From the IMG/VR virus record IMGVR_UViG_3300045391_004554, positions 1 to 64,000 of that record: a stretch of DNA of 64,000 nt; one strand, written 5' to 3'. Below, piece after piece: positions 2,427 through 44,966 of this stretch; positions within the stretch are counted from its first letter, which is position 1, and every line of letters begins with the position of its first letter. The stretch comes from a virus. Position numbers and translations under genes: made by a program. The notes under the pieces were generated by a model that was given only the letters and a program-made list of their open reading frames with translations, had not been told where the DNA came from and ran no database searches.

Positions 2427-2459
2427 TTTGGAATTAACGTACATATACATGTATATTAG
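2427..2459 (+). promoter_or_regulatory. Bacteroidota sigma70-type early promoter
   Basis: TTTG (2427-2430), 21-nt spacer, TATATTAG (2452-2459; consensus TAnnTTTG); A/T-rich upstream. Confidence 0.65.
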
Positions 2460-2699
2460 CAGAGCGGTTCACTATATGACCGCAAATAGCGTACTAACTT
2501 TCTTAGCATTATACTTCTCAATGCTACTAACCACCTCCGAAAGTTACAGCTATAATAGACACGTGTTGAACGTGTACAGTTAGAGAGTGAAGCCACACTA
2601 AAAACTCTCCGGTCGGGATAACCTGAATTGAACCCGCGTTAAGCTCAAATAGAGTGCCATCGAATAAACCGCAGGCTTGAAATAGTGTCACGGTCAAAG

Positions 2700-2765
2700 T
2701 AAAACGTAAACGGATTAAATCCGTTCTGACGAGTCCTTTACAGTAATACAGGACGAAACGTTTTA
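2700..2765 (+). ncRNA. Hammerhead ribozyme, type III
   Basis: Stem III UAAAACG/CGUUUUA, GUA cleavage triplet (cut after 2708), stem I AACGGA/UCCGUU, core CUGACGA (2726-2732), stem II GUCC/GGAC, GAAA (2755-2758). Confidence 0.95.
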
Positions 2766-2779
2766 AAATCACAAATCAC

Positions 2780-3058
2780 ATGAAAACACAATCAGAAGTT
2801 TACACCACAAAGTTTATGGCTCACAATCCAACCGTGTTAGATACCAGAGTCAACAGCAACCGCCAAGTGTGCACCTTTTTAGAGCATCCAACACTAGGCG
2901 AAGATGCAGCAGTATATGTAATGATCGGTGAAATATTAGCCGATACAGAGTTTTTTGACCTTGAAGACTTTTATTACGGCTCAGATTATGAACCTACATT
3001 AATTGACGGCAAGATCATATGTAAATTTGAATATCAGCCAGTAAACAGCCATGAATGA
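2780..3058 (+). CDS. Hypothetical early protein
   Basis: ORF with A-rich leader directly after the hammerhead. Confidence 0.8.
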   Translation: MKTQSEVYTTKFMAHNPTVLDTRVNSNRQVCTFLEHPTLGEDAAVYVMIGEILADTEFFDLEDFYYGSDYEPTLIDGKIICKFEYQPVNSHE

Positions 3059-3248
3059 TAACATTCCTTACATGTCTGCCGAATACGGCAACGGTCAGCA
3101 AGATAAAGCAAAACAAATGTTCGCCAGCCTGTCACCAACACAACAAACCGAATGCGTAGACTTTTTGTCCGGGCATATGTGGTATGATGTGTTAGACTAT
3201 GACGAGTTAGGCGACTTTGAATTATTTATTAACTTCTTAAAATCATGA
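3051..3248 (+). CDS. Hypothetical early protein
   Basis: ORF overlapping upstream stop. Confidence 0.7.
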   Translation: MNDNIPYMSAEYGNGQQDKAKQMFASLSPTQQTECVDFLSGHMWYDVLDYDELGDFELFINFLKS

Positions 3249-3252
3249 AAGC

Positions 3253-3480
3253 ATGAAAGCACAACTTTGTAAATGCAATAACTGCAACGCCATAATGGTA
3301 GATATGAACCCAGCCGAACAGCCGGAATTTGAAATTCTATCTACTATAATTGACATGGAAAATATACAGGAAATAGACCCCGATAACCCCGCTAACCTTT
3401 GCGAAAACTTTTGGGGTTGTCCTAACTGTAAAACCGATGCGCATCTAATTGATATTATATCTATATCACAACTCCACTAA
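3253..3480 (+). CDS. Zinc-ribbon small protein
   Basis: CNNC and CPNC pairs. Confidence 0.75.
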   Translation: MKAQLCKCNNCNAIMVDMNPAEQPEFEILSTIIDMENIQEIDPDNPANLCENFWGCPNCKTDAHLIDIISISQLH

Positions 3481-3532
3481 GGGAGTATAAACCCTATTAG
3501 GCTTAGTGCGTGCCCTTATTTAGGGCGGTCAG
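3471..3532 (+). ncRNA. Pistol ribozyme 1
   Basis: P1 ACUCC/GGAGU, loop ACUAAG pairs with CUUAGU (pseudoknot), AUAAA, GCGU, P3 GCCCU/AGGGC, G-GU-CAG; P2 has one mismatch. Confidence 0.85.
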
Positions 3533-3550
3533 TAAACAAATTTAAATCAC

Positions 3551-4099
3551 ATGAAAACATCTTATTATCACGGTACAAATGCCGATAACCTGCCCCATAT
3601 TTTAAAACACGGCTTGCAATGTTATGAGTCAAAATTATGGACTGTATCAGAAGACGCCATTTATTTATGGCATCCTGAATCATGCGGTAAAGCTAACGAC
3701 TTAGACCCTGAATATTGGGAATCGGAGGCATTTAGATTAGCTAACGAAAGCGGTCAAATTGCCTGTTCGATTGCTAAAGATTGTCGGGTAGTTGTTCTTA
3801 AAATAGAACTTGACGACGAATTAGTTTCCGGCGATACTTCATGCGAGAATATGGAGTCAGGAGGCGCAAAATGCATATATGACAATATCCCAGTTGAGGC
3901 AATAACAGAAATTCACGTATCTAATGATTTATCTTTAGTTAAAGGCTACTTTATGTCTCTAATTTCAAAACGTCGTTATTGCAATATTGATTTTACACCC
4001 TTTGAGCAACAAGTCGCAAAAATGTTTGAAGGAGGCTATTTAATAGACCATTTGGATGATTATATAGAATTTGAAAAATTAGCCGTGGCAACGGCTTAA
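3551..4099 (+). CDS. ADP-ribosyltransferase-fold (ART/Tpt1-like) protein
   Basis: YYHGT-x(3)-L-xx-I-xxx-GL, AIYL, VVLKI and IPVEAI motifs typical of the ART superfamily. Confidence 0.55.
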   Translation: MKTSYYHGTNADNLPHILKHGLQCYESKLWTVSEDAIYLWHPESCGKANDLDPEYWESEAFRLANESGQIACSIAKDCRVVVLKIELDDELVSGDTSCENMESGGAKCIYDNIPVEAITEIHVSNDLSLVKGYFMSLISKRRYCNIDFTPFEQQVAKMFEGGYLIDHLDDYIEFEKLAVATA

Positions 4100-4148
4100 A
4101 ATAGTCTGTTAAGTTGCCAGCGTTCCCGGTTCAATGCCGGGAGGTCAG
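4081..4148 (+). ncRNA. Pistol ribozyme 2
   Basis: P1 AGCCG/CGGCU, pseudoknot UGGCAA/UUGCCA, UAAAAUAG, P2 CUG/CAG, UUAAG, GCGU, P3 UCCCGGU/GCCGGGA, G-GU. Confidence 0.95.
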
Positions 4149-4164
4149 TAAATCACAAAATCAA

Positions 4165-4326
4165 ATGGAAAAGTTAAACAAAATTATTTACCTTAAAAAA
4201 GGTGGCTATGATTGCACAGAAGAAGAAAGTGCATTAATTAAATCTCTTATAAAAGACTTAGTTAAATATTTCCCTATTGAACACAGCGAAGCCATTGAAG
4301 AGCTTGAAAAGGAGGCGCAATCATGA
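4165..4326 (+). CDS. Hypothetical early protein (start revised to MEKLN)
   Basis: ATG 4165 with A-rich leader; the track start (TTG 4114) lies inside the ribozyme. Confidence 0.7.
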   Translation: MEKLNKIIYLKKGGYDCTEEESALIKSLIKDLVKYFPIEHSEAIEELEKEAQS

Positions 4327-5291
4327 AAAATAATTTCAAACCTAAAAGCAAAAGCGCAGCAAGTGCCAACCCTTTCGACGTTTACCAGATGGTAACGGAT
4401 AAGATTTTAAAGCAGATTGAGGAGACCGGGCGCCTGCCTTGGACAAAACCGTGGAAAAGTGCAGGACTATCCGGCAACGGTGTATTTCCAATGAACGGCA
4501 AAACTAAAAGACGTTACGAAGGCGTTAACTTCTTTTTGCTACAGTTTTCCGGTTTTACCTCTCCTTACTGGCTATCATTCAAACAGGTTGAAGAGCTAAA
4601 AGGCACAATACGCAAAGGCGAAAAGGCCACGCAAATCGTATTTTGGAAGATCAATAAATACGATGAAAAAGACGAGACCACCGGAGAAATTAAGCAAAAA
4701 CAAGTCCCTTTACTACGTTATTACAACGTGTTTAATGTGGAACAGTGCGAAGGCTTAAATTTGCCAGTTGAAGCAATTGCAGAGCCTACAGAGCCACAAA
4801 ATGATAATACGCCTATTGAGCTAAGCGAATCAGTGATAGACCAATACGGACGCTTACAACCAGCCTTAACTATTCAGGTTAGCGAGAGTAACGAAGCCTA
4901 CTACCAGCCGGGACGCGATTTAGTTAATATGCCAGTTATTAACCAGTTTGAAAGCAGCGAAGCGTTTTATTCTGTCTTCTTTCACGAACTTGCACATAGC
5001 ACAGGCCACAAGGACAGGCTAAACCGCAAAGAGGTTGTTGAAGGTAGTGTATTTGGTTCAGGCGGTTACGGTCAAGAGGAACTTTGCGCAGAGTTAACAG
5101 CCGCTTTTATTTGTGCCGAAGTCGGTATTAATAATGAGACCACAGAGACCCGCAGCGCATCGTATATTAAAAATTGGATGCAGACTATTAAAGCAGATAA
5201 GAAACTGTTTATTATGGCAGCAGGACGCGCCAGCAAGGCCGCTAATTACATATTAAATAAGGATGCAGCCATAGAGGAGGAAGTAAACTAA
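4323..5291 (+). CDS. ardC: ArdC-family anti-restriction/ssDNA-binding protein with zincin-like domain
   Basis: PWTKPW, YEGVN, WLSFKQ, IRKGEK, YNVFNVEQ, HELAHSTGH, EELCAEL, SYIKNW motifs. Confidence 0.92.
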   Translation: MKNNFKPKSKSAASANPFDVYQMVTDKILKQIEETGRLPWTKPWKSAGLSGNGVFPMNGKTKRRYEGVNFFLLQFSGFTSPYWLSFKQVEELKGTIRKGEKATQIVFWKINKYDEKDETTGEIKQKQVPLLRYYNVFNVEQCEGLNLPVEAIAEPTEPQNDNTPIELSESVIDQYGRLQPALTIQVSESNEAYYQPGRDLVNMPVINQFESSEAFYSVFFHELAHSTGHKDRLNRKEVVEGSVFGSGGYGQEELCAELTAAFICAEVGINNETTETRSASYIKNWMQTIKADKKLFIMAAGRASKAANYILNKDAAIEEEVN

Positions 5292-5293
5292 AT

Positions 5294-5368
5294 GCCGTCT
5301 AAGCGGCTTAAAATAGTTCTGTCAAGCTTAGAGCGTTCAACCCGTGTTTGTATACGGGTTGAGGTCAG
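5294..5368 (+). ncRNA. Pistol ribozyme 3
   Basis: P1 GCCG/CGGC, pseudoknot UCUAAG/CUUAGA, UUAAAAUAG, CUG/CAG, GCGU, long P3 UCAACCCGUGU/AUACGGGUUGA, G-GU. Confidence 0.95.
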
Positions 5369-5383
5369 TAAAATTAAATCATT

Positions 5384-5641
5384 ATGTCAACTTACTATTA
5401 TCTTAGAGAATCCGCTAACGGTAAGAAAAAGCGGTTTTTAAACAATTGGGATATTATAAAATATCTCGAAGAAAAGCACAATCTTAAAATTGAATGCGCA
5501 GTAGTTGCAGCTTGGAATATTCAAAAAGTATTCTACGTTGCAGCAGGGGAACCCGAAGCAGGAAAGTATATAGCCGAAACTGTATATCTTAATGAAAAGG
5601 ATGAATTGAGTTATTTACGCACAAACATGTTAATTAGCTAA
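5384..5641 (+). CDS. Hypothetical early protein
   Basis: ORF after pistol 3. Confidence 0.75.
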   Translation: MSTYYYLRESANGKKKRFLNNWDIIKYLEEKHNLKIECAVVAAWNIQKVFYVAAGEPEAGKYIAETVYLNEKDELSYLRTNMLIS

Positions 5642-5647
5642 GTCATT

Positions 5648-6004
5648 ATGGAAACATTAACATTAACCCAGCGGGATATGAAACCGCTTTTAATTGAGAC
5701 AGAAGGCAACGAAGTTTTTAACGAAAAACACATGTTAGCCGAAATATTCAATTGTGTGAAATTCTGGAACCGGGAGGGCCTACACTGTCATATTAATAAC
5801 AATGAGCACTACAAAACCGGAGGCAGCTACGAGGATTTTATTTTACGCTGTATCGCAGCAGATTGCCGGGCCTTCGTTAACGCTAAAAAATCAGTGTGGA
5901 ATCCTAATGTAATTGAAGGAGCTTATATAACTGGTAAAGGAGGCAACCACGTTTGGGTTGCCCGTGCCAGTGACAACGAACGTATTTTATTTATTCACTT
6001 TTAA
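5648..6004 (+). CDS. Hypothetical early protein
   Basis: ORF in operon. Confidence 0.8.
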   Translation: METLTLTQRDMKPLLIETEGNEVFNEKHMLAEIFNCVKFWNREGLHCHINNNEHYKTGGSYEDFILRCIAADCRAFVNAKKSVWNPNVIEGAYITGKGGNHVWVARASDNERILFIHF

Positions 6005-6017
6005 AATCACAACCATT

Positions 6018-6131
6018 ATGGAATTTTTAAAACTTATTGGCGGCTTTGTGGGAACTGGTGTTCCTGCTTTGCTTATTGTGGGTACACTCGTTTTTTCTGC
6101 TAAACAGGTACGTAAAGAGCTTGGAGTATAG
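6018..6131 (+). CDS. Small single-TM membrane peptide (37 aa)
   Basis: MEFLKLIGGFVGTGVPALLIVGTLVFSAKQVRKELGV, good A-rich leader; below track cutoff. Confidence 0.55.
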   Translation: MEFLKLIGGFVGTGVPALLIVGTLVFSAKQVRKELGV

Positions 6132-6225
6132 TCCAGGCTCTTGATCATTACCCGGTAGATAGTTTGGAGATCACGTTTGATACCACTTATCTATATATAC
6201 ATAAAGTTTGAGTTAACATTATTTC

Positions 6226-6300
6226 AGTCGGTGCAACGACTTTAAATATCTGTTAGGTTGCACGCGTGCGTACCTGTAGCTTATATTGGTACGCGGTCAG
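6226..6300 (+). ncRNA. Pistol ribozyme 4
   Basis: P1 AGUCG/CGACU, pseudoknot GUGCAA/UUGCAC, UUAAAUA, CUG/CAG, GCGU, P3 GCGUACC/GGUACGC, G-GU. Confidence 0.95.
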
Positions 6301-6315
6301 TAAATTTAAAACATC

Positions 6316-6813
6316 ATGAAAACTAACTTGCCATCTGAAATTACCTCTATTGAAGAGGCTAAAAAATTCCTATCTGAATTACATGCCAATGGGGAATCGT
6401 TTCACCCAGAGGATAACGCGCACGATATAGATTGGGATTTACCTGACGAGCAAAAGCCTGATTATATGCAGTCACGTCAACTTAATAAACTAATGTTTGA
6501 CATTTATAACCTGCCGGGTAATGATAGGAGTCATGTTAATTTAGCTTTTGATCCTTGTGATTATCTGCTTTGGTTGGATGTTAATTTTAATGACAGCAGA
6601 CTAAAGGAAGCTATTGAAAACGGCACTCTTGAAAAGTTTACTACCGAATACGAGTACGTCATCGAAAAAGGCCCAGACCCATATAATCCCTGCTATGAGT
6701 TAACACTTATTAGCGGAGATAATATAATTATGGTGCTGGAATATAACACCCGCCAAGACGCCGAGTATGATGTAGAAATATTGGAACATTGGCTAAATAT
6801 TACCGAAGCATAA
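6316..6813 (+). CDS. Hypothetical acidic early protein
   Basis: ORF after pistol 4. Confidence 0.8.
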   Translation: MKTNLPSEITSIEEAKKFLSELHANGESFHPEDNAHDIDWDLPDEQKPDYMQSRQLNKLMFDIYNLPGNDRSHVNLAFDPCDYLLWLDVNFNDSRLKEAIENGTLEKFTTEYEYVIEKGPDPYNPCYELTLISGDNIIMVLEYNTRQDAEYDVEILEHWLNITEA

Positions 6814-6818
6814 ATAAT

Positions 6819-7067
6819 ATGAGAACGACAATTACCCGAATTCTGGATATTCCTAAGATGGATTTACCAGATACATTTGTTAGTTCATTGCACGCGTGCT
6901 CATGCTATGAGGATAACGTAGAGCAGCAGCACATCTACAATTCATTTGACCTCTTAAATAATGGCCTTTTTGCTGGCGTTTTCAATAAAGCAAATAAAAC
7001 TATCCTTCAAGAAATTGAGGCTTTATGCCTTCAAAACGAGTGTACCTATTTCAGGTTAACTTACTAA
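6819..7067 (+). CDS. Hypothetical protein (start revised)
   Basis: ATG 6819 just after upstream stop. Confidence 0.7.
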   Translation: MRTTITRILDIPKMDLPDTFVSSLHACSCYEDNVEQQHIYNSFDLLNNGLFAGVFNKANKTILQEIEALCLQNECTYFRLTY

Positions 7068-7132
7068 AAACATACGTTTCATATCGCTGTAGCCAGCTTC
7101 AAGCTGGTAGAACAGATACAAAACATAACTTT

Positions 7133-7339
7133 ATGACGTCTTTAATAAAAAGCAAAGAAAATTTTGATAGGCTTGGACAAGTCGGCAAAATAAACTATAT
7201 GAAGAAATTAGGCTTTGCCTGGAATGCACTGGACTCTTACGATTTTTATGGCAGTGAGCGCAGGTTTTTTAGATGGCTGCATAGGAATAATCTTATAGAG
7301 CAATTTATAAACGATTTTTCTCATGAGTCGGCCTCTTAG
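7133..7339 (+). CDS. Hypothetical protein (start revised)
   Basis: ATG 7133 with A-rich leader. Confidence 0.65.
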   Translation: MTSLIKSKENFDRLGQVGKINYMKKLGFAWNALDSYDFYGSERRFFRWLHRNNLIEQFINDFSHESAS

Positions 7340-8046
7340 CGTATTAATCGATTGTGAGCGTTCAGGGATAGTCCGTGAAGCTTTTGCAAAACGCGGTTGG
7401 GATGCTTGGAGCTGCGATCTGGAAGATACCGAAATTCCAGGCAACCACATCAAAGGAGACGCAATAGCGGCCCTGCATTCACGCGTTTGGGATTTAGTTA
7501 TAGCTCATCCGCCTTGCACCCGTTTGGCTAATAGCGGAGTCCTACGGCTTTATATCGATGGCAAAAAGGTAAATGGCATCGACATTGGTAAATGGCATCG
7601 ACATTGGTAAATGGCGTGAAATGGAAGACGGGGCGCACTTCTTTAAAAAGTTTATTGGTAGTTGTGGATATCTGGCTATTGAAAATCCTATACCTCATAA
7701 ATATGCTTTGAAGATCATAGGTGATAAATATACCCAGATCATACAACCGCACCAATTTGGGGAAGATGCAAGTAAAGCAACCTGTTTGTGGCTCTATGGC
7801 CTCCCCAAACTTAAACCTACCCTGCACTATCCCCCGCGTTATGTAGATGGGAAAGCTCTTTGGGGAAATCAAACCGATAGCGGACAAAATAAATTACCGC
7901 CAGACAGCAAGAAAAATAAAGGACTACGGGCTAAAATGCGCTCACAAACGTATCACGGAATAGCTGATGCTATGAGTGCCCAGTGGGGATCATTCATTGA
8001 ACAAAAGTTTCATACTACCTTGTTTCACTCGTCGGAGCGAGTATAA
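7323..8046 (+). pseudogene. Phage-type C5 DNA cytosine methyltransferase, frameshifted by a 19-bp tandem duplication
   Basis: CERSG..VREAF, WSCDL, IAHPPCT in ORF 7323-7610; IENP, IQPHQFG, KATCLWL, RSQTY.GIADAM..QW in ORF 7573-8046; removing one repeat unit joins them. Confidence 0.85.
7568..7615 (+). repeat. 19-bp tandem repeat GGTAAATGGCATCGACATT x2 plus 10-bp partial copy
   Basis: Read directly from the sequence. Confidence 0.95.
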
Positions 8047-8097
8047 ATAGTGCTGCTTAAGCTTCGAGCGTTCCAACCTCTTTAGGTTGGAGATCAG
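8027..8097 (+). ncRNA. Pistol ribozyme 5 (A-U cleavage-site variant)
   Basis: P1 ACUCG/CGAGU, pseudoknot UCGGAG/CUUCGA (one G-U), AUAAAUAG, CUG/CAG, UUAAG, GCGU, P3 UCCAACCU/AGGUUGGA, G-AU. Confidence 0.92.
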
Positions 8098-8111
8098 TAA
8101 ATCATATAATC

Positions 8112-8828
8112 ATGAAAAAAGTATCATTATCATTAACTCAGGTTAATTACCTGATTGAAGAAAGTTTTAACAGTGGGTACAGGTCTGGTCAGAGCGCCCA
8201 ACGTTACTTAAGGTCAGAATGTATCCATCAAGATCAACTTGACAGGCTTAAGGAAGTTAAAGACGGATTATATTCAGAATTTAAGTTTGATAACGCTCAC
8301 GACCAGAACGGCTACTTTAATGCCTTCTCTCACTGTATCTGTATTCTTGCAGATTGGAGAGCTAATAAAGTAACCTTGCAGCCAGATGAAGACAAGCGCA
8401 TAGGTGAGCTTATTGGAGCATTCGAGAATATACACAATAAGTATGAAAATGAAGCCCTCCAAGAATCAAAGCAAACCTTTTCTGATCGTTTAATGGAAAC
8501 TTACCATTCGGCTAAGGCTACCATTGACGAACTTGTTAAACTTCATAACGGTAGCTTTGTGGTTTATGAGTCCTCAGCCGCCTATGACGAGGATGAAGAA
8601 TGCCTGACCGACGATTTCCTGGAAACCTCTACTTCTATTATCGTCAATACTACCTTTAACGATAATGAAACCGTTTATCTGTTAAAGCTGGAAGGCAGTG
8701 AGATATATTATATCACTGAACACGGCACTATAGATAGTGTGGATATCCAATTTGTGGATGACCACACGGTTTGCGATATCGCCGATTGGATAGTTGCCTG
8801 TAACCTGATTGAAAAAGCACAATCATGA
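8112..8828 (+). CDS. Hypothetical acidic early protein
   Basis: 238-aa ORF after pistol 5. Confidence 0.85.
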   Translation: MKKVSLSLTQVNYLIEESFNSGYRSGQSAQRYLRSECIHQDQLDRLKEVKDGLYSEFKFDNAHDQNGYFNAFSHCICILADWRANKVTLQPDEDKRIGELIGAFENIHNKYENEALQESKQTFSDRLMETYHSAKATIDELVKLHNGSFVVYESSAAYDEDEECLTDDFLETSTSIIVNTTFNDNETVYLLKLEGSEIYYITEHGTIDSVDIQFVDDHTVCDIADWIVACNLIEKAQS

Positions 8829-9117
8829 ACCGGGTACTATTCCTCACCTTCTGGATTGCCAAGCAAATCGGAGATGAACAACGAATGACTAACCTACAAC
8901 AAATTATTGTTGTAGGTGTACTGGTAGGTATGTTAGTTAATATGGTTTTAAATAGGTAAATCATGGCTGAAAAAGTATTTTACACGTTGATTATCTTGGC
9001 TCTTATTACAGTGTTAATAAGAATAATTTTATTGGCGTTCCTATTTTAGATCCGGCTATCGCCCTGCAAATCCCGGAGACCATCTCCGGGATAAAAAACA
9101 ACTTAACTTATATAATT

Positions 9118-9327
9118 ATGAAATCCTTTCTTATAACAGCTTCTAAATACATTTTCTTACTAATGGTTTGGAGTGGAATAATGGTAGTAGCATGCAGCAT
9201 CGGACACCTGTTCGTGCTTGTGTGGGAAACCACGAGCGACAAAGGTTTTTTATGGCTCGGGGCTGGCTCTTTGGCATTTATATTATTAATATGCCTATTA
9301 TTTACAAAGGTGTTCGATGATGAATAA
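9118..9327 (+). CDS. Two-TM membrane protein
   Basis: Two hydrophobic segments. Confidence 0.7.
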   Translation: MKSFLITASKYIFLLMVWSGIMVVACSIGHLFVLVWETTSDKGFLWLGAGSLAFILLICLLFTKVFDDE

Positions 9328-9390
9328 CTCCGTGCATGGAGTATAAAAATTGATTAGGGTGCACGCGTCCGGCTATATGCCGGGGTTCAG
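9327..9390 (+). ncRNA. Pistol ribozyme 6
   Basis: P1 ACUCC/GGAGU, pseudoknot GUGCAU/GUGCAC (one G-U), AUAAAAA, P2 UUGA/UCAG, GCGU, P3 CCGGC/GCCGG, G-GU. Confidence 0.92.
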
Positions 9391-9405
9391 TAAAATCAAA
9401 AAAAA

Positions 9406-9912
9406 ATGGAAACCAAAAATCAAAAATCTCCGGCTATTCAGATTTTAGAAGCAATTTGGATAGCAACCCCTTATCCATCTCACCAACACGTTAACAGAAC
9501 CATGCAGTCCGCTCTCTCGCTGGTTATTTCGTCAGGAATTAATTTTCATATTGATGACTTTGAATATATTCATAAGACTTTTCGCCCTGGCTATTGGATG
9601 GGCAGATCAAGCAACGGCCATCATTTAGGAGAGCATTATTACGCGGAGGCATGCAATAGTAATCCGTCATGCGTAGCAGCTTGGGAGCATTATTACAAAC
9701 GTCAGGGTTTTATACTAGACGGCAAGAGAATGTACTGCAACAGTAGGTTTTTATATGACGGCCTTGGCTGCACCATAACAGGCTGGAGTGAAGATAATCA
9801 GCGTTTGACCGCTGTAGGTTACTCAGGTAGTTTTGACAAGGGCAAACGAACGCTTTTAAGCTTTGATAAAAACACCTGGTTGGCCGAACGTAAAACTATT
9901 AAACTCGTATAA
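9406..9912 (+). CDS. Hypothetical early protein
   Basis: ORF after pistol 6. Confidence 0.85.
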   Translation: METKNQKSPAIQILEAIWIATPYPSHQHVNRTMQSALSLVISSGINFHIDDFEYIHKTFRPGYWMGRSSNGHHLGEHYYAEACNSNPSCVAAWEHYYKRQGFILDGKRMYCNSRFLYDGLGCTITGWSEDNQRLTAVGYSGSFDKGKRTLLSFDKNTWLAERKTIKLV

Positions 9913-9914
9913 CA

Positions 9915-10109
9915 ATGGCAGACTTTTATTTACTATCTCAAACAGCAACCGGCCACAAAAAGATAAGCTTGGTTAAATTTATTCGGGCAGCTTGTGGCAA
10001 GATCAAAGTTAAACACACGCACCAATTGCATGAGTATTGCGCCTGTTGTGATGCTATTACTCCTACTTATAGACAAGAATGTTGTGTATGTGGAACGTAT
10101 AAAGATTAG
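9915..10109 (+). CDS. Small zinc-finger protein
   Basis: CACC...CCVC. Confidence 0.7.
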   Translation: MADFYLLSQTATGHKKISLVKFIRAACGKIKVKHTHQLHEYCACCDAITPTYRQECCVCGTYKD

Positions 10110-10161
10110 TTCTGTAGCTTGGAGATCAATATCATCTATATATACATAACCTTTCACGAAA

Positions 10162-10365
10162 ATGAAATTACACTTTAAAGTAACATTCAGGCAAATATAT
10201 TGGTTTGCGGCATTCCTCTTTAGCACCATCCTTATTGGTGCCCAGGACTGCATATCTTACCTTACTACCGGAGCACTGGTTTTCTGTATTGCGAAAACCT
10301 ACTGCTTTATGTTCCTGTCTTCTTATGTGCTTTGGAAAGCGTATAAGATATTTCAAAAAGATTGA
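10162..10365 (+). CDS. Small membrane protein
   Basis: Hydrophobic ORF preceded by a TATACAT box. Confidence 0.6.
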   Translation: MKLHFKVTFRQIYWFAAFLFSTILIGAQDCISYLTTGALVFCIAKTYCFMFLSSYVLWKAYKIFQKD

Positions 10366-10409
10366 TGCAGCGAATTGACTGTTTCGCTCATCATGGTTTG
10401 ATTACTGAG

Positions 10410-10442
10410 GGCGTCGGGTTGTGATTTTCCCGGCGCTTTTTT
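10410..10442 (+). terminator. Intrinsic terminator ending the ribozyme-containing early unit
   Basis: GCGTCGGG/CCCGGCGC stem plus T6. Confidence 0.85.
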
Positions 10443-10476
10443 GTTTTCTTAAGTACATATACATAACTTTAAAAAT

Positions 10477-13068: not shown

Positions 13069-13164
13069 AATATTTTACACTTTTGGGCGGCACTCATCTA
13101 CATATACATAATATTTTATAAAATAATTTTAATTTCTTACAATAAACTTTAACTTTGATTTCTC

Positions 13165-18972: not shown

Positions 18973-19314
18973 ATGGCACATGATATCACAGCTGACCGCA
19001 AACCGTTTGATTTTACTTCTCCTATAGCTCAGCTTCAATTTGGTAAACATAAAGGAGAAGTAATGTGGACTATTGGACTCTCTTCCCTGGAATGGATGGA
19101 CCGATCCTTAACCTTAACTGATCGGGCCCGGCAAACTATTCACGACGCTAAAGAAATGTTCGTCAGATCAGGAGAGTATGCAGTAATGCGTAATATTAAA
19201 GGAGATAAATGGGAATGTAAACTACAAGGTATTTACTCCTCTAAATCTATAGCAGATGCTCATACTAATATTGGAGAAGGATACGAAGACTTTGTGTATC
19301 ATATCAAAGAATAG
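18973..19314 (+). CDS. DUF3820-like (FGKHKG) domain protein
   Basis: LQFGKHKG...LEW. Confidence 0.6.
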   Translation: MAHDITADRKPFDFTSPIAQLQFGKHKGEVMWTIGLSSLEWMDRSLTLTDRARQTIHDAKEMFVRSGEYAVMRNIKGDKWECKLQGIYSSKSIADAHTNIGEGYEDFVYHIKE

Positions 19315-19367
19315 TATCTATATATACATAAAGAACTGATTAAATAAATTACTTTAAAATAAATCAC

Positions 19368-28000: not shown

Positions 28001-28590
28001 GATTAAGATCCGTTACAACTTCACCAAAAAGGATGGCAGCATCTCTTCTACCAAAACTGAGATCAGAGATGCTTATGGAGAATATTGTCAATTCTGTGGT
28101 AAAAAGCACAAAGAAGAAAGTGAGGTAGCCAATGACTAACGACACCAACAGCTTTGAAGAATGGAAAGCAGAACTTATCCGTATAACAGCCGACGAATTA
28201 AAGATCGACCCTGCTGAGGTAAAAATTAATGAAGAAGAAGCCCGGTTCTGGTATAATGATGGATGGCCTGCTTATGCTGTCTTTCGTGAGAATTGGGATT
28301 CAGATGGGGATTAATTCATCTATATATACATAAAGTTTGACGAAAATGATATCGCAAGAAGAAATAGAAAAAATAATCGAAGAATATTCCGTTGGAGACA
28401 GGCCATACAGCAAAGAGATTGAACTTGTCCTGTTTAATGGGACTGCCACTAATCCGTTGACCATGGAACAAATGCGCCTATTCGCTACCACCATTAAAAT
28501 GCTTCGGGATAACGGCATCCAAATAAGTATACAACGTTCTTATCAAAGAGGGGAACATTATCAAGATCAAACCATTTATATCAAAAATCA

Positions 28591-44808: not shown

Positions 44809-44888
44809 TCTTCCCTGAGGGATTTGAACCCTCACCCCGAAGGACGGGATTTTAAGTCCCGCGCGTCTGCCAGTTTCACCAAGGGAAG
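44809..44888 (-). tRNA. tRNA-Leu(TAA)
   Basis: CTTCCCT/AGGGAAG-A; CGGGA-CTTAAAA-TCCCG; short UUCG variable arm; GGTTCAAATCC. Confidence 0.9.
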
Positions 44889-44892
44889 TAAG

Positions 44893-44966
44893 TGGGCTGT
44901 GAAGGATTCGAACCTTCAACATCCAGATTCTAAGTCTGGCGCGACTACCAATTGCACCAACAGCCC
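44893..44966 (-). tRNA. tRNA-Leu(TAG), lacking a long variable arm
   Basis: GGGCTGT/ACAGCCC-A; CCAGA-CTTAGAA-TCTGG; 5-nt variable loop. Confidence 0.88.

Follow-up and report, generated by a model that had tools for sequence, protein, structure and literature searches.

The early mRNA of phage T7 is split at intercistronic RNase III sites, which leaves a stable structure on the upstream 3′ end, and the engineered insulator RiboJ, a hammerhead-type ribozyme derived from sTRSV with an added hairpin, trims the variable 5′ end that follows a promoter. Pistol ribozymes (Rfam RF02679) are a further self-cleaving class, attributed to Weinberg 2015. Multiple hammerheads that flank genes or short gene blocks have been described in prophages, and it was proposed that they cut long phage transcripts into mRNAs of gene length; three of these arrays cleaved in vitro and one in vivo, the latter flanking the anti-restriction gene ardA (Perreault 2011, PMC3088659). 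In the halovirus HF2 a hammerhead precedes an early helicase gene, with 13 nt between it and the start codon, and the mapped 5′ end of the mRNA is the cut site (PMC3088659). A review from 2019 repeats the processing idea, the purpose of bacterial and phage self-cleaving ribozymes being still largely open (PMC6765202). Here we report six pistol ribozymes and one type III hammerhead that lie between the small genes of an uncultured phage from soil. They are located in positions 1 to 64,000 (the window) of the linear IMG/VR virus record IMGVR_UViG_3300045391_004554, which comprises 100,225 bp and has a CheckV completeness estimate of 83%; the other 36 kb were scanned separately.

The locus shares with the prophage clusters several ribozymes between co-oriented small phage genes, a varying set of flanked genes and the presence of an anti-restriction gene (ardA there, ArdC here). 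It differs from them in its composition of six pistols and one hammerhead, its greater density, its probable Bacteroidota host, the single octamer shared by the 5′ ends of the predicted released mRNAs and the position of one ribozyme next to a promoter-like motif; cleavage was shown there, whereas here it is predicted from the sequence. An earlier note on this DNA had taken such ribozymes to be known near phage genes as single copies only, a premise that is wrong because clustered ribozymes flanking phage genes were described in 2011. The arrangement is an unusually dense and conserved example of a kind known from phages since then and not a new system; the processing idea is not new in principle, and our finding is incremental. 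Two details, the invariant 5′ end and the pistol next to a promoter-like motif, appear to be unreported so far. No published description of a multi-copy pistol array was found in the literature searched, which did not cover the original Weinberg 2015 account.

The likeness to T7 is an analogy of function only, since cleavage by a host protein enzyme yields 5′-phosphate and 3′-OH ends there, while the predicted self-cleavage here would yield 5′-OH and cyclic-phosphate ends. As in HF2, a ribozyme directly precedes the start codon of an early gene, but the arrangement is a pistol array in contrast to the single hammerhead of an archaeal virus. The present copies share with the pistol class P1, P3, the pseudoknot, the 2-nt cut junction, the conserved AAA and GCGU and the association with phage genes, with a P2 that is weak in some copies; they differ from the class at large, which is mainly known from Firmicutes and environmental DNA, by a fixed 3′ strand of stem P2 (CAGU, followed by AAA) and by one predicted cut between A and U.

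Identity and fold of the ribozymes

The genome was scanned with Rfam cmscan at the curated gathering scores of 34.5 bits for Pistol (RF02679) and 48.5 bits for Hammerhead_3 (RF00008). Six Pistol matches exceed the gathering score with 37.5 to 56.4 bits, all on the plus strand and each spanning model positions 1–68. The cut sites are predictions from a parse of sequence and structure, and the leaders extend from the predicted cut to the next ATG:

2701–2764, plus strand: type III hammerhead (Hammerhead_3, RF00008, 42.6 bits, E 6.4e-6), predicted cut after A2708 (triplet GUA), next ATG at 2780
3471–3533, plus strand: pistol 1 (RF02679, 37.5 bits), predicted cut after G3528, 22-nt leader to ATG 3551
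4081–4149, plus strand: pistol 2 (RF02679, 51.1 bits), predicted cut after G4144, 20-nt leader to ATG 4165
5293–5369, plus strand: pistol 3 (RF02679, 50.8 bits), predicted cut after G5364, 19-nt leader to ATG 5384
6226–6301, plus strand: pistol 4 (RF02679, 49.6 bits), predicted cut after G6296, 19-nt leader to ATG 6316
8027–8098, plus strand: pistol 5 (RF02679, 56.4 bits), predicted cut between A and U, after A8093, 18-nt leader to ATG 8112
9327–9390, plus strand: pistol 6 (RF02679, 38.1 bits), predicted cut after G9385, 20-nt leader to ATG 9406

The six full-length matches above the cut-off agree with the six pistols that the earlier note had read from the sequence at these places, and the seven cuts that it had predicted, after positions 2708, 3528, 4144, 5364, 6296, 8093 and 9385, were the same in an independent parse. 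A pistol is defined by the stems P1 to P3, a pseudoknot that pairs the P1 loop with the P2–P3 junction, a conserved AAA, the motif GCGU and a 2-nt junction (Harris et al. 2015, PMC4604425). By sequence and structure criteria all six elements belong to this class. Their comparison was extended by a related metagenome contig of 6,581 bp (L137), which was obtained in an ArdC-based scan, encodes an ArdC protein with 71% identity and contains four pistols above the cut-off (at 1708, 2759, 4178 and 5178; 40.6–57.1 bits). The alignment of all ten copies (A2) shows that 98.2% of the 110 cells of P1 and the pseudoknot are paired and that 10 of the 11 pairs are altered on both sides. None of 500 shuffles reached the covariation score or the paired share, two of 500 reached the number of doubly altered pairs, and sliding the partner by 1–3 columns left a pairing of only 28–38%. 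The covariation of stems and pseudoknot between copies that had been claimed for the window is thus borne out by a larger set with shuffle and slide controls.

P3 is a perfect hairpin of 6–12 bp with a different sequence in each of the ten copies, and the P3–P2 junction with the predicted cut strictly comprises 2 nt (GU, with AU at 8027 as the one exception). The AAA linker and GCGU are invariant throughout, and UUARG is retained in nine of ten (UCAAG at 5293). P2 consists of three to four pairs in most copies and of two of four in those at 3471 and L137:1708. Its variation is one-sided, the 5′ strand changing while the 3′ strand is constant. All ten RNAs released by the predicted cuts would accordingly start with U(U)CAGUAAA, irrespective of the variable and sometimes mismatched 5′ partner strand, whereas the Rfam consensus of the pistol is variable at the positions of this 5′ end. 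The conservation of U(U)CAGUAAA even where P2 pairs are lost seems to indicate that the new 5′ end is constrained as a sequence and not through pairing alone. A strict descriptor that requires P1, a 6/6 pseudoknot, AAA, GCGU, 5 bp or more in P3, the R-U junction and P2 recovers five of the six pistols; outside the window it matches only in the related contig, with zero false positives on both strands of about 1.7 Mb of unrelated loci.

The hammerhead displays the core CUGACGA, a stem II hairpin and GAAA, together with stem III (AAAACG/CGUUUU), the cut triplet GUA and a 7-bp stem I hairpin, and its minimum free energy fold yields exactly stems I, II and III. It therefore corresponds to the structural definition of type III (core, three stems, open end in stem III, NUH triplet), as the earlier note had proposed, although its score is below the gathering threshold. 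A regular-expression search for the core CUGANGA–hairpin–GAAA on both strands found this single instance in the 100-kb record. The predicted cut lies near its own 5′ end, so that the ribozyme would stay with the downstream RNA, at its 5′ terminus. Its counterpart in L137 (746–806, 38.3 bits, E 1e-5) is located at the same relative place, and stems I and II differ in sequence with their pairing retained.

Upstream of the hammerhead, about 110 nt without ORFs are conserved in both loci (window 2590–2700, L137 640–745). Their alignment (A3) contains the common blocks GTCGGGATAAC, AACCCGCGT, ATCGAA and TTTGAAA, corresponding to GUCGGGAUAAC, AACCCGCGU, AUCGAA and UUUGAAA in the RNA, and this leader is conserved although window and L137 have almost no genes in common. 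A further element of L137 (1172–1221) is by eye a canonical type I hammerhead with GACUAA/UUAGUC as stem I, CUGAUGA, stem II, GAAA, stem III and a cut behind GUC; Rfam returns a weak RAGATH-1-hammerhead match of 27.8 bits, and the element ends 25 nt before an ATG.

Conservation and placement in the gene block

All open reading frames (ORFs) from 2780 to 10365 are located on the plus strand, and the ribozymes are confined to one co-oriented block of small genes; the designation of this block as early is based on its gene content and position. The seven ribozymes fall within 6.7 kb and delimit blocks of one to five ORFs. With the Rfam models no further ribozyme match was obtained at E ≤ 1 in the window or at E ≤ 0.1 in the other 36 kb, and the reported absence of ribozymes from the rest of the window accordingly extends to the full 100-kb record. 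Nine gaps between ORFs of the block comprise at least 50 nt: six are occupied by a pistol, two by a plain hairpin and one by a promoter-like motif. The distance from the end of the ribozyme to the ATG of a co-oriented ORF amounts to 15–28 nt for the ten pistols and three hammerheads of the two loci. The predicted released leaders of 18–22 nt (18–27 nt with those of L137) are A-rich and exhibit no Shine-Dalgarno match. Three upstream ORFs end inside the ribozyme itself (3471, 4081, 8027): the stop codon lies in the P1 loop of pistol 1, which has a weak P2, whereas the UAAA linker provides the stop in the other two, since the ORF before pistol 2 runs through P1 and ends within UAAAA, and the methylase fragment before pistol 5 terminates within AUAAAU. 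The two ribozyme-free gaps with hairpins are 7067–7133 (hairpin at 7092–7108) and 9049–9118 (hairpin at 9070–9092). The latter is the stronger one (10 bp, z −4.4); the missing U run behind its stem indicates that it is not a standard terminator, and it may act in processing or stabilisation.

Our comparison with L137 documents the same layout, i.e. a conserved leader, a hammerhead and then pistols, and the ribozymes of this contig end 20–28 nt ahead of an ATG. ArdC is the sole L137 protein with a counterpart anywhere in the phage record (tblastn), and in both loci a pistol is located directly behind it, pistol 3 following immediately 3′ of the ArdC stop codon. The remaining DNA similarity is limited to the pistols with their leaders and to the stretch before the hammerhead. 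Matching pistols of the two loci exhibit 74%, 68% and 64% identity, compared with 32–61% between copies of one genome, and they are ordered differently relative to ArdC. One example is pistol 4, whose closest counterpart (L137 5178–5252) is 74% identical with a fully compensated pseudoknot. As the layout is kept while only ArdC is shared, the two sequences indicate that the ribozyme punctuation is conserved and that the cargo genes turn over. The retention of the ribozymes with ArdC as the only common protein also argues for selection acting on the ribozymes.

Further relatives were sought by several routes. In IMG/VR a loose pistol pattern yielded chance matches only, and there was no match for a lineage-specific pistol pattern or for the conserved-leader pattern. 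The lineage-specific pattern gave 13 single matches in genome contigs, none of which is a genuine pistol by the strict descriptor. A search of viral contigs with a single TerL query returned one fragment of 24% identity without a pistol. No pistol was present in ten ArdC-bearing IMG/VR contigs (at most 57% identity) or in the 19 next ArdC metagenome loci after L137, the INPHARED phages contained no DNA match to the block, and a search of limited sensitivity found no pistol in those searched among 151 sampled Bacteroidota genomes. Two other IMG/VR records carry a similar pistol in one copy each. A single pistol of 71.8 bits was observed in a metagenome-assembled genome of Mucilaginibacter (Sphingobacteriaceae; L230, G013:C65:38832-38895, minus strand). 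It has a different P2 (GAAC) and the same placement, namely a stop codon, the pistol, a 26-nt A-rich leader and an ATG.

Transcription and the proposed processing role

The genome contains six copies of a 20-nt motif with the consensus TCTAyATATACATAAnnTTT, all of them on the plus strand and in gaps before plus-strand genes. The following elements are relevant for the transcription of the block:

2427–2459, plus strand: predicted block promoter, from sequence reading and motif comparison, with the motif variant GTACATATACATGTATATT at 2439–2458
2460–2700, plus strand: ORF-free leader upstream of the hammerhead, the 3′ 110 nt conserved in L137
6186–6210, plus strand: internal promoter-like copy TCTATATATACATAAAGTTTG, expected start at about 6215, 11 nt before pistol 4
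10131–10155, plus strand: internal promoter-like copy before the last ORF, whose ATG (10162) lies 7 nt past TTTC
10448–10470, 13093–13115, 19313–19335 and 28315–28337, plus strand: the other four promoter-like copies, from motif comparison
about 10408–10443, plus strand: intrinsic terminator at the end of the block, with a G+C-rich stem of 12 bp and a U run behind it

The motif resembles the flavobacterial sigma-A −7 box, which is located at −12 to −5 (PMC9723704), and it is probably an early or middle promoter of the phage. At three copies an ATG follows 5–7 nt after the box, which matches the expectation for leaderless messages, and the mRNA from the copy at 10131–10155 is probably leaderless, given that its ATG lies only 7 nt behind TTTC. 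The promoter that had been proposed at 2427–2459 proved to be a variant of the repeated motif, and a similar element is present at the same relative place in L137, but as a promoter it is a consensus-type guess. The terminator that had been placed at about 10410–10442 folds well with its 12-bp stem and U run, and a motif copy (10448–10470) is located directly behind it. A scan for sigma-70 promoters was uninformative (39 sites versus 36 expected). The interpretation of the block as a single polycistron was only partly right, because the two motif copies inside it make more than one transcription unit likely, and the block is probably not one polycistron. In L137, too, a promoter-like element is located just before the pistol that matches pistol 4. 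Pistol 4 would also trim freshly started transcripts, by analogy with synthetic ribozyme insulators: it resembles RiboJ in its position just behind a predicted promoter and differs in being natural and in having a transcription start that is predicted.

We consider it fairly likely that seven working self-cleaving ribozymes in the plus-strand messages of this region (2.4–10.4 kb) make separate gene-block mRNAs. Each pistol would fold during transcription into P1, the 6-bp pseudoknot, P2 and P3 and would cut the 2-nt P3–P2 junction. The upstream RNA would keep a compact pistol fold and a 2′,3′-cyclic phosphate at its 3′ end, while the downstream RNA would begin with a 5′-OH and U(U)CAGUAAA, followed by a short unstructured A-rich leader. 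Cleavage by the hammerhead would free the leader as a discrete 245-nt RNA with a cyclic-phosphate end, the ribozyme itself staying on the first message. Read-through and promoter-started transcripts together would result in six or seven separate gene-block messages. We infer from this arrangement that cleavage in vivo would also affect stability and translation: the ends should be poor substrates for end-dependent RNases, and translation start regions would be insulated from upstream RNA. Such insulation is a plausible benefit, because initiation in Bacteroidota hinges on a weakly structured start-codon region and not on Shine-Dalgarno pairing; Shine-Dalgarno sequences are absent from Bacteroidetes, in which the structure of the mRNA adjusts initiation (PMC6847099). 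The protein-free processing in the manner of T7 RNase III that the earlier note had put forward is accordingly retained as the most plausible reading, with conserved placement in its favour, but without its novelty, the idea having been proposed in 2011.

Several points weigh against the processing reading. Pistols 1 and 6 barely exceed the cut-off, and in view of its low score and a P2 with only two of four pairs pistol 1 may cleave slowly or not at all. The hammerhead (42.6 bits) falls short of its gathering score of 48.5, the match being full-length all the same. The expected end protection and translation benefit are extrapolated from the RNase biology of Escherichia coli and Bacillus subtilis. 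Because the ORFs upstream of pistols 1, 2 and 5 are translated through P1, ribosomes on them could hinder folding of these copies. The internal promoter-like motifs imply that cistron separation cannot be the sole role, as pistol 4 would trim only about 80 nt off a new transcript. Among the sequencing runs that contain window sequence, no RNA run was found. The last of the alternatives to processing, that the motifs are decaying relics, inactive and with no present role, would account for the low scores of pistols 1 and 6 and the P2 mismatches of pistol 1. It is scarcely credible in the light of near-perfect pairing with compensatory changes, of GCGU, AAA and the 2-nt cut junction in all ten copies, and of the retention of the elements in L137 despite the replacement of almost all flanking genes.

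A pistol with its leader might instead be a portable junction that separates gene cassettes open to exchange; the array would then mainly reflect recombination at these conserved junctions of 60–90 nt, and cleavage would allow any incoming anti-defence or host-takeover gene to be expressed. This explanation is compatible with the processing role and in accordance with the restriction of DNA similarity between window and L137 to ArdC and the pistols with their leaders, with the lack of phage counterparts for the other L137 ORFs and the altered order of pistols relative to ArdC, with the invariance of the pistol 3′ end and leader start in 10/10 copies, and with the inconstant flanked genes of the prophage arrays (Perreault 2011, PMC3088659). 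We nevertheless regard it as doubtful, since the comparison rests on two genomes, an identity of 32–61% between copies of one genome gives homologous recombination little to act on, the array has no linked recombinase, and conserved function alone predicts the same pattern. A bolder extension is a long shot: U(U)CAGUAAA could be a recognition tag on 5′-OH messages for a ribosome-loading or shielding factor, and tag and pistol together a standard “plug” for swapping anti-defence cargo. If true, the locus would represent a natural cassette system that works by recombination without an integrase and offers fixed, self-processing expression slots.

In a further alternative, ribosomes that complete the upstream ORF in P1 or the linker, Mg or ionic conditions, or a phage or host factor on the invariant UCAGUAAA would determine if a given junction is cleaved and thereby the proportion of long and short messages in the course of infection. 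Regulated cleavage was raised in 2011 for slow phage hammerheads (PMC3088659). The upstream stop codons within pistols 1, 2 and 5 would fit such a control, as would the one-sided weakening of P2 in several copies with a 3′ strand that is never altered; pistols studied so far are, however, fast with Mg as the only cofactor (PMC4604425). As the present pistols correspond over their full length to the minimal Rfam consensus and contain no ligand-binding or extra domain, we hold regulation of this kind to be improbable.

The combination of 5′-OH and 2′,3′-cyclic phosphate would suit RtcB, and an RtcB-type ligase, which is encoded by a control Bacteroides genome, could join these ends to circular or re-spliced RNAs. 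Cutting and rejoining is very improbable, given that circles would lose the free 5′ leader, that no RtcB, RNA ligase or 2′,5′-ligase-type enzyme was found in the phage record (83% complete), and that spliced or circular products of hammerhead arrays were sought by Perreault 2011 and not found (PMC3088659). A single-subunit RNA polymerase was likewise not found in the record at this completeness. With regard to the processing role, the locus represents a compact natural test bed: two ribozyme classes with seven members in all share a block of 8 kb, a relative has kept the ribozymes and replaced the genes, the predicted released messages have a fixed 5′ end, and one pistol directly follows a probable promoter. 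It could separate cistron separation, end protection and translation start as roles of cleavage in hosts without Shine-Dalgarno sequences.

Gene content and host

Two genes of the block could be assigned by library scans:

4323–5291, plus strand: ArdC anti-restriction gene (Pfam ArdcN 5e-34, MPTase-PolyVal 6e-35, phrog_7245 6e-76)
7323–8046, plus strand: DNA methyltransferase gene in two frames, both halves matched by phrog_757

The Pfam and PHROG matches leave the ArdC label of the earlier note on solid ground. Its methylase is a real gene according to phrog_757, but a perfect tandem duplication of 19 nt at 7568–7615 (TRF, 2.5 copies) shifts its frame and divides it into the halves 7323–7610 and 7573–8046. 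The gene could be inactivated or subject to a phase-variable switch, or the split could be a variant of the assembly. The 182-aa protein encoded at 3551–4099 had been described as carrying an ADP-ribosyltransferase fold, for which there are weak leads and nothing beyond them, i.e. a sub-threshold DarT match over 20 residues and protein-atlas leads to ADP-ribosyltransferase folds. The remaining genes of the block encode small proteins without annotation in the library scans.

The window sequence was traced to one DNA sequencing run labelled soil metagenome, in which seven short contigs were recovered. Six of them (151–337 bp) are identical to the window and one is a partial match with four differences; they hold nothing on processing. 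Long contigs with close homologues exhibit identities of 82–86% for TerL and 82–83% for ArdC. The distant TerL matches among sequenced phages, 87 in number, all belong to phages on Flavobacterium, Cellulophaga, Tenacibaculum or Maribacter, bar one uncultured Caudoviricetes record. A host from the Bacteroidota is thus probable, the distant TerL relatives being phages of Flavobacteriia. A match to the Flavo-1 RNA (RF01705) at 1757–1832 on the minus strand (44.3 bits, cut-off 42) is located in the divergently oriented region left of the small-gene block and is compatible with such a host. Two neighbouring tRNA genes are present at 44809–44966 on the minus strand of the window, with Rfam scores of 62.1 and 51.4 bits.

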